Positions 1 to 467 of a DNA stretch of 467 nt are shown here, one piece after another. The translations under genes were made by a program, and so were the position numbers. Below the pieces are notes generated by a model. It worked only from the letters and a program-made list of their open reading frames with translations. It made no database searches and was not told where the DNA came from. Numbering within the stretch: the first letter of the stretch is position 1; each line of letters opens with the position of its first letter. The stretch comes from Escherichia coli (GTDB lineage: Bacteria; Pseudomonadota; Gammaproteobacteria; Enterobacterales; Enterobacteriaceae). The stretch is from NCBI RefSeq assembly GCF_003334255.1, contig NZ_QOWU01000234.1; one strand, given 5' to 3'.

Positions 1-467
1 AGCGCACTGACCAGCGTATCCAGTTCCCAGCCGGTGCGGGCCGATACGGCCACAACCGGATGTACGGGCCGGAACAGACGGAATACCGCCTCCGTTTTTT
101 CGCGAATATTCTGTGCCTGTGCAGGAGAAGGCTGAATACCGGCCATATCCCATTCATGGCAGGGCTCCGTTTTGTCGGCCTGCGTCACCACAAACAGTAC
201 CCGCTGATGTCCCCGGTGCAGGATGTGTTGCCAGAAATACTCATCCACAGACAGGGCACGGTCATCGGCTTTAATCAGCCACAGTACCAGGTCCAGTTCA
301 GGCAGAATGTCACGGTACAGGGCCTCATACTCTGCATCCCTGTCCCGGCTCTCGCCCACCCCGGGCAGGTCAGTGATAACCATGCTGTGACCGTGGCCAC
401 TCAGACGGAAGCGCCGTACTTCCCGGGTGCCGGCGTGAACATCACTGACCGGGGTGACCTCCCCCTG
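1..467 (-). CDS. Internal fragment (both ends outside the window) of a small GTP-binding protein with a Ras-like/TRAFAC G domain (MMR_HSR1, '50S ribosome-binding GTPase'-like); resembles the YfjP/YkfA/YeeP family of cryptic-prophage/genomic-island GTPases
   Basis: Seen in sequence: the minus-strand frame whose first codon is the complement of 467..465 is open for all 155 codons. Codon choice is enterobacterial-like (frequent CTG Leu, G/C-rich third positions). G-domain motifs occur in the expected order and spacing: G2 'GTRE' (420-431), G3 'VITDLPGVGE' with DxxG at 360-371, G4 'LFVVTQADK' (171-185), G5 'VVAVSAR' with SAR at 36-44. G3 to G4 is about 60 residues and G4 to G5 about 44, typical of a G domain. 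The P-loop (G1) should lie about 20-40 nt beyond position 467. Family assignment is from recalled similarity to E. coli CP4-prophage GTPases, not from a search, so no gene symbol is given. Confidence 0.85.

Follow-up and report, generated by a model that had tools for sequence, protein, structure and literature searches.

A yeeP-type gene for a predicted Era-like GTPase at the head of a conserved accessory block in Escherichia coli genomic islands

The DNA considered here, a stretch of 467 nucleotides from Escherichia coli (contig NZ_QOWU01000234.1 of assembly GCF_003334255.1; the whole stretch, positions 1 to 467, is called the window), lies inside a protein-coding gene and, judged by its sequence, is part of an intact yeeP-type gene belonging to the YfjP/YkfA/YeeP family of Era-like TRAFAC (translation-factor-related) GTPases. 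This gene is the first, co-directional gene of a conserved block of accessory genes carried by tRNA-inserted islands with a P4-type integrase, and its identity and island context, rated jointly, are considered close to certain. The complete coding sequence (CDS) is found in strain RM10466 (L001:19766-20638, minus strand; 290 aa, WP_001069673.1, annotated as "GTPase family protein"), to which the window is 100% identical. Six-frame translation and this match define the window as an internal fragment of the yeeP-type CDS, covering codons 58-212 of 290 at positions 1..467 of the minus strand. The favoured explanation in its entirety, from gene identity through to the mechanism proposed below, is judged about as likely to be right as wrong.

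Identification of the reading frame required some care. The window has 60% G+C, and six-frame translation revealed two frames without stops across its 467 bases, minus-strand frame 1 and plus-strand frame 3, so that an open frame alone constitutes weak evidence. Minus-strand frame 1 is the sole biologically supported one: it contains 155 codons without a stop, and its 155-aa product begins with QGEVTPVSDV and ends with LDTLVSA, codon 58 corresponding to window bases 467-465 and codon 213 starting with bases 2-1. In an alignment of five sequences (WP_001069673.1, YfjP, YkfA and relatives from Yersinia and Serratia), the varying columns at codon positions 1, 2 and 3 numbered 81, 63 and 134 of 151, respectively. 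Comparison with the Escherichia albertii ortholog yielded a ratio of nonsynonymous to synonymous substitution rates (dN/dS) of 0.17 for the whole gene and 0.13 for the part in the window, so the gene is under purifying selection. An earlier note on this DNA, made from the letters of the window, had recognised a G domain in the 155-aa translation and had left the strand unnamed; codon-position variation, dN/dS, Pfam matches and the annotated CDS all support the minus-strand frame. The possibility of a gene in plus-strand frame 3 (a 169-aa open reading frame, ORF, L001 19979-20488) was also considered and rejected, given that the codon-position variation fits the minus-strand frame. The antisense open stretch extends over 240 codons here, versus 79-136 in YfjP, YkfA and the Yersinia and Serratia orthologs, and this lack of conservation gives it the appearance of a shadow ORF of a G+C-rich gene. 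Rfam gave zero matches inside the window at E values up to 1, repeats within it were limited to short pairs at chance level, and a scan for promoters and terminators around the gene returned counts near the shuffle expectation and nothing usable.

The full gene possesses a complete set of G1-G5 motifs, of which G2 to G5 lie within the window, all on the minus strand. Thr71, the G2/switch I threonine (426..428), is nearly invariant in an alignment of 43 family sequences, and in the G3/switch II motif DLPG (residues 90-93, 360..371) the D, P and G are invariant in the same alignment. It is followed by Val94 (357..359), assigned from sequence and from established knowledge of such GTPases to the position of the catalytic Gln of Ras; a hydrophobic residue at this place is characteristic of Era-type GTPases. 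After strand beta-4 comes the family motif KADDRA (residues 123-128, 255..272), in which R127 is invariant and D125 and A128 are nearly so. The G4 motif is TQAD (residues 152-155, 174..185), a variant of NKxD whose Asp155, the predicted determinant of guanine specificity, is nearly invariant, and G5 is represented in the alignment by SAR (residues 199-201, 36..44). The P-loop (G1, GKSGAGKS, residues 43-50) falls outside the window, 24 bases (eight codons) past base 467 in the matching gene, and it is devoid of the Asn for K+ coordination. Thus, the description of the fragment as a G domain given in the earlier note holds for most of that domain, G2-G5 being inside, and not for its P-loop. Across the 43 relatives, which reach down to 27% identity, 13 columns are invariant, comprising those of the P-loop, Asn54, D-x-P-G, Tyr108, Trp120, Arg127 and Pro159.

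The family assignment was derived from several comparisons. Pfam family PF01926 (MMR_HSR1), anticipated by the earlier note, turned out to be the top family both for the 155-aa fragment (2.4e-5, with Dynamin_N at 5.5e-5) and for the full 290-aa protein (3.6e-14, Dynamin_N being then a partial and weak match at 2.5e-4). The resemblance to YfjP, YkfA and YeeP that the same note had recognized was borne out at the DNA level by yeeP of K-12, in which 318 of the window bases survive with an identity of 97.8%, and at the protein level by 56% identity to both YfjP and YkfA over the window. The similarity is collinear and full-length, with 51.6% protein identity to YfjP and 50.9% to YkfA over 285 residues; on account of these identities to the K-12 copies, the gene is regarded as orthologous to yeeP, of which it is an intact version, and as paralogous to yfjP and ykfA. 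An exhaustive representative search recovered 2,050 clusters at E values up to 1e-3 and 154 at E values up to 1e-30. PADLOC, PHROGs and NCBIfam produced generic G-domain matches and no family-level assignment, and a search of PDB sequences found no solved structure of a family member. The family was reportedly placed among the Era-like GTPases in the 2002 classification of Leipe et al., and a conserved-domain entry named YfjP covers it. It was also observed that in some database entries (P0009, P0046-P0048, P0020, P0011) the GTPase is fused to DUF932, to an Ag43-type domain or to other domains; the probable causes are frameshifts, errors of gene calling or local deletions that join neighbours.

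The gene is very abundant in the species. Of 5,426 complete E. coli genomes searched by megablast with the window, 4,484 (about 83%) contain near copies, at 8,562 places in total, with a median of two and a maximum of seven per genome, and the annotation at all listed matching places is a CDS for "GTPase family protein". A 100% match to the window occurs in at least 16 complete genomes, including O113:H21, O22:H8 and O43 strains, and an O91 strain reaches 99.8%. Family matches were present in 42 of 72,556 plasmid records, several of which are of megabase size and look chromosomal, while 50,697 phage records contained three weak matches (22-29% identity) and the PHROG matches were weak only. 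The earlier note had spoken of cryptic prophages of the CP4 type; the CP4-type island context stands, and the near absence of the family from phage genomes makes "genomic island" a better term than "prophage".

Given its Era-like G domain, the protein could be thought of as a ribosome-associated GTPase similar to Era or Der, tuning translation or ribosome assembly for the benefit of the island, as implied by the label "50S ribosome-binding GTPase". Indeed, the best NCBIfam matches were MnmE (8.7e-15), Era (6.8e-14) and Der (1.8e-12), MMR_HSR1 is the top Pfam family, and a profile of the family compared with PDB sequences found Era first (1.2e-24). However, all NCBIfam scores were far under the curated cut-offs (in bits, 55 vs 380 for MnmE, 51.8 vs 237 for Era, 47 vs 306.7 for Der and 38.3 vs 124.45 for YihA/EngB), and these models aligned to the G domain only. 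The protein contains no KH domain, second G domain or MnmE N-terminal domain, its flanks being helical, and the gene is accessory, multi-copy and island-borne instead of belonging to the syntenic core. As for the label, the Pfam name fits the founding members and not the YeeP family. The earlier note had held that best matches to housekeeping GTPases with conserved chromosomal synteny would contradict its reading, and what was found were scores below the cut-offs and a gene located in islands. By sequence, then, the protein has a G domain of the Era superfamily, and a ribosomal function for it appears unlikely.

The full gene of the matching genomes, as distinct from the window alone, encodes a protein in the ~290-aa class with helical flanks and a conserved hydrophobic tail. 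In a model predicted by AlphaFold2 with the family alignment (mean predicted local distance difference test, pLDDT, 93.9; predicted TM-score, pTM, 0.91), two helices precede a compact G domain and four follow it on the C-terminal side, of which the final pair is long (residues 235-259 and 263-288). When the whole length of this model was compared with the PDB by Foldseek, the vertebrate immunity-related GTPases (IRGs) Irga6/IIGP1, Irgb6, Irgb10 and GM4951 came first, at E values of ~1e-9, with TM-scores on the query of 0.55-0.59 over ~289 columns and a root-mean-square deviation of about 7 A; Era, Toc34, mini-MFN1, EHD2 and GIMAP2 came next. Likewise, the longest match of the family profile to PDB sequences was Irgb10 (1.1e-13, profile positions 1-240). 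The Pfam family IIGP (PF05049) gave an E value of 0.011 over residues 24-103 only, which is not a significant match, and the fold search against AFDB50 returned nothing beyond the family itself, under generic names. The modelled layout bears a moderate resemblance to the IRG/mitofusin type, in which the G domain is clasped by N- and C-terminal helices.

Two further features of the family deserve attention. The first is the C-terminal tail, the final 30 residues of the protein, which show strong conservation within Enterobacterales (VVSVARAVW-D/N-WIFF). The tail is predicted to form an amphipathic helix whose polar face is lined by Arg and whose end is aromatic; its hydrophobic moment is 0.54-0.70, and it has no transmembrane-grade hydrophobicity. 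In a two-hybrid screen with the N-terminal half of RNase E as bait, a fragment of YfjP comprising residues 259-287 was recovered twice, the preys being mainly inner-membrane proteins (PMC13232886); the authors of the screen class YfjP as cytosolic, and the prey is unvalidated (PMC13232886). We take this result as weak support for an affinity of the tail for membranes. The second is the occurrence, in distant relatives (about 36-39% identity), of tandem paralogous GTPase genes, one directly after the other, identified in Zoogloea, Aquaspirillum, a Helicobacteraceae genome, a Bacilli genome and a metagenome contig (L046 9890-11640, L050 9959-11799, L053 6412-8169, L013 91-1742 and L052 269-1963). 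In the four intact pairs the first gene encodes the C-terminal helical extension and the hydrophobic tail, and the product of the second, which starts with a longer N-terminus and carries a GK(S/T)GYGKS or GQTGYGKS P-loop, stops directly behind its G domain. The second gene is fragmented in the Helicobacteraceae genome (L052).

The genomic neighbourhood of the family is equally conserved. In K-12, the order of the block is the same in the three CP4 elements that the earlier note had named: yfjP, yfjQ (DUF932) ... lfgA (antirestriction), lfgB (RadC-like), ypjJ, yfjZ and ypjF in CP4-57; ykfA, yafZ ... ykfI in CP4-6; and the remnant yeeP', isrC, flu ... cbtA in CP4-44. The same block is headed by 60%-identical relatives in Yersinia ruckeri and Serratia. 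When a single genome of each species was scanned, 75 loci were obtained, 28 of them Enterobacterales loci with a family member. At least one block gene was present in 23 of these 28, and four of the other five are cut by contig ends. DUF932 lies downstream on the same strand in 19, its start usually ~90 nt past the GTPase stop, and it comes immediately next after yfjP, ykfA and the GTPase gene in 15 of the 28; in the Yersinia and Serratia relatives, a WYL-type regulator or an unassigned gene comes next. Upstream, the Enterobacterales loci typically carry a divergent gene for an AlpA-like helix-turn-helix protein and an inovirus-Gp2/YfjJ-type gene. Relatives outside Enterobacterales (36-39% identity) are still found in mobile-element settings: in one metagenomic lineage a P4-type integrase and a helix-turn-helix gene stand directly upstream of the GTPase, and in Lawsonibacter a serine recombinase stands directly downstream. 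In two Clostridia genomes, Lawsonibacter and Oscillibacter (L045 3045-5037, L051 6736-9428), a DUF932-like gene, assigned by BLASTP to YfjQ (5e-8) and a shared PHROG family, and a gene for a RecE/YqaJ-type exonuclease are found a few genes upstream of the GTPase; in Oscillibacter the exonuclease gene is followed by a RecT gene. The association between GTPase and DUF932 thus spans phyla.

From this material a mechanism can be tentatively outlined, one that we regard as possible and that stands clearly below an even chance: YeeP would be a nucleotide-gated, membrane-peripheral, dimerising switch serving the island, and not a ribosome-assembly factor. Its motifs predict that it binds GTP via a canonical G1-G5 site. 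Hydrolysis would probably occur only on pairing of two G domains, because the hydrophobic residue at the catalytic-Gln position and the absence of the P-loop Asn for K+ suggest that a partner surface is needed. Toc34, IRG, GIMAP and dynamin-type proteins usually solve this by pairing their G domains, and the paired GTPase genes carried by distant relatives would fit such a solution. In Enterobacterales the pair would be a homodimer, and in those distant relatives a heterodimer with the tail-less neighbouring paralog. Next to the G domain, the N- and C-terminal helices would together build a helical domain of the kind seen in IRGs, mitofusin and bacterial dynamin-like GTPases, and attachment to the inner membrane would probably be provided by the conserved amphipathic helix at the C-terminus, whose last residues are W-x-W-I-F-F. 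Finally, the switch would serve the mobile element, either in its establishment after transfer or in its maintenance. Antirestriction, RadC-like, DUF932 and type IV toxin-antitoxin genes are of kinds also found in the leading regions of conjugative plasmids, and a role in establishment or maintenance is suggested by the fact that the constant neighbours of the GTPase are of this kind.

The resemblance to IRGs raises another possibility, namely, that the protein is an anti-phage or immune effector, a miniature dynamin-like or IRG-like GTPase acting on membranes during infection. The whole-length fold would be in line with it, as would weak PADLOC matches to LeoBC (1.8e-8) and LeoA (6.9e-5), the tandem GTPase pairs, which recall bacterial dynamin pairs, and the presence of defence genes close by in some islands, such as AbpAB and RnlAB just upstream of yfjP in CP4-57, or a RES/ResIII/methyltransferase cluster adjoining a 42%-identical relative. 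However, the LeoBC match is confined to residues 11-127, the N-terminal half of the G domain, and the LeoA match, longer (residues 27-260), is weaker and not family-level. No LeoA/LeoBC partner genes occur at the E. coli, Yersinia and Serratia loci, and distant relatives pair with a small paralogous GTPase. Moreover, the constant companions are of the counter-defence or establishment type (antirestriction, RadC, DUF932) and not defence genes, and the protein has half the size of any dynamin-like protein. An immune function is considered improbable. Another idea, that the family represents a bacterial miniature of an IRG/mitofusin-type GTPase, tethered to the inner membrane by its amphipathic tail and activated by pairing of G domains (in the ancestral two-gene form, with a partner GTPase that has no tail), which would act for integrative elements in their establishment or in their conflicts with phages and with host defences, is also doubtful, and somewhat less so. 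If true, it would provide a prokaryotic relative, or an independent reinvention, of the vertebrate cell-autonomous immune GTPases, and would give a role to an island gene that ranks among the most widespread unstudied ones of E. coli.

The composition of CP4-57 is itself worth a comment: the anti-phage genes abpA/abpB and the RnlAB toxin-antitoxin system lie directly upstream of yfjP (L004 8352-14356), and their presence there suggests that defence genes use the stretch from the replication-type genes to the GTPase block as a cargo slot.

Two remaining explanations fare much worse than an island-serving switch. That the gene is a decaying, non-functional island gene might be thought from the 5'-truncated yeeP pseudogene of K-12 and from the many database entries that are partial or fused to neighbouring genes, but the 290-codon ORF is intact with all its G motifs, the dN/dS values given above are low, variation at the third codon position dominates across genera and the 13 invariant columns persist in 43 relatives, all of which makes decay very unlikely. 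That the gene specifically regulates its neighbours, the gene of the Ag43 adhesin or the IsrC small RNA, to which it lies close upstream on the same strand, is scarcely credible and was rejected, as most family members have no neighbouring Ag43; Ag43 looks like cargo inserted into the block.

The host island can be described from RM10466. It starts at tRNA-Phe (pheV), followed by a tyrosine integrase (the two together at 3,417,862-3,419,400 of NZ_CP028381.1), extends over ~88 kb and carries the ato operon, iha, btuB, an autotransporter, a two-partner-secretion haemagglutinin, an Ail/Lom-type protein and many insertion-sequence remnants. Its far boundary is marked by a 17-bp direct repeat of the 3' end of tRNA-Phe (TTCGATTCCGAGTCCGG, L001 8193-8209), between yghD and a DUF4942 gene. 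The O113:H21 strain and strain 2014C-4135, which also match the window at 100%, show the same arrangement beside yghD. A pheV-inserted island with integrase and direct repeat therefore holds the gene in three 100%-match genomes, which substantiates the suspicion of the earlier note that the window sits in a horizontally acquired element. The last block of the island runs on one strand in the order GTPase, IsrC, agn43, YeeR-like, IrmA, DUF905, DUF932, antirestriction protein, YeeS (JAB/RadC-like), YeeT (DUF987), CbeA, CbtA, DUF5983, DUF957 and DUF4942. Also in agreement with the note, which had placed such genes upstream of an accessory module, Ag43, DUF932, the antirestriction protein, the RadC-like JAB protein and CbeA/CbtA lie downstream of the GTPase in the same three genomes. 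The IsrC/IS102 small RNA (L001 19459-19662, minus strand; Rfam RF00124, 253 bits) is located between the GTPase stop and agn43, as in K-12, the distance from that stop being ~100 nt to IsrC and 330 nt to agn43.

Some additional observations were made on this island. A 1.23-kb stretch 5' of the GTPase start (L001 20639-21868) has no annotated gene and no ORF above 77 aa, and its G+C content is 32-40%, versus 58-63% in the adjoining gene. In 1,857 complete E. coli genomes at least 80% of this stretch is conserved, there too without annotation; it might represent a control region kept silent, an origin of transfer or an RNA that has escaped recognition. A gap of ~1.3 kb likewise precedes the Yersinia ruckeri gene (L007 8703-10001). 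Elsewhere in the pheV island, a full atoSCDAEB acetoacetate operon is found a few kb from the integrase (L003 28916-36166), and an Ato system is likewise listed in DNA inserted at pheV (PMC6174562).

The gene itself is already known: thousands of genomes carry an annotation for it, and earlier descriptions of CP4-type elements, as well as of pathogenicity islands in Shiga-toxin and uropathogenic E. coli, cover its island context. As to function, the statement in the earlier note that no biochemical role is established agrees with our literature search, in which no functional study of a YeeP/YfjP/YkfA-family GTPase was found. The yfjP deletion appeared in a screen for persister resuscitation, where it woke more slowly than the alpA mutant and was not taken further (bioRxiv 10.1101/2021.04.10.439273). 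The new elements are the structure model, the finding of IRG GTPases as the best whole-length matches among solved structures, the tandem pairs and the extension of the DUF932 link to Clostridia. The interest of the gene lies in the gap between its abundance and what is known of its role, and the notion of an "unknown GTPase" is narrowed by four leads, namely a layout resembling that of IRGs, the amphipathic nature of the tail, the pairing of GTPase genes in distant relatives and a DUF932 association that reaches Clostridia.

In comparison with known systems, the protein shares with Era, Der (EngA), MnmE and EngB the fold of the G domain and the hydrophobic residue in place of the catalytic Gln, and these GTPases give its best sequence scores, whereas it has neither a KH domain, nor a tandem G domain, nor an MnmE-type domain, and its gene is accessory and island-borne. 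Bacterial dynamin-like proteins, the Eleos defence system (LeoA, LeoBC) included, are recognised by a large dynamin-type G domain with stalk and paddle and a total length of at least 550 aa, in contrast to the 290 aa of the YeeP-type protein. The layout of the IRGs (Irga6/IIGP1, Irgb6, Irgb10), with helices before a Ras-like G domain and a helical domain on its C-terminal side, is moderately similar to that of the model; they are vertebrate proteins of ~400 aa with 17-20% identity, and common descent and a shared mechanism are unproven. Much closer are YfjP (CP4-57) and YkfA (CP4-6), of the same length class (287 aa), with the same G motifs and conserved C-terminal tail, and each encoded by the first gene of a block running from DUF932 to a CbtA-type toxin. 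They differ in a four-residue deletion after G4, in having SQSD instead of TQAD, and in that DUF932 follows directly, with no Ag43; they are paralogs and not orthologs. The closest is yeeP of K-12 (b1999, CP4-44), at the same place upstream of isrC and flu/agn43 and with 97.4% DNA identity over 934 bases including the downstream spacer, although it is an annotated pseudogene that has lost its 5' part (approximately the first 106 codons, including the P-loop), while the window gene is intact in the matching genomes. As for the island, the LAA (adhesion and autoaggregation locus) is an 86-kb island made of four modules, with Ag43 in module IV (PMC7545054). The host island, with its ~88 kb, iha, two-partner-secretion haemagglutinin, Ail/Lom-type protein and agn43, resembles, in gene content, site and size, this pathogenicity island of Shiga-toxin E. 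coli negative for the locus of enterocyte effacement (LEE).
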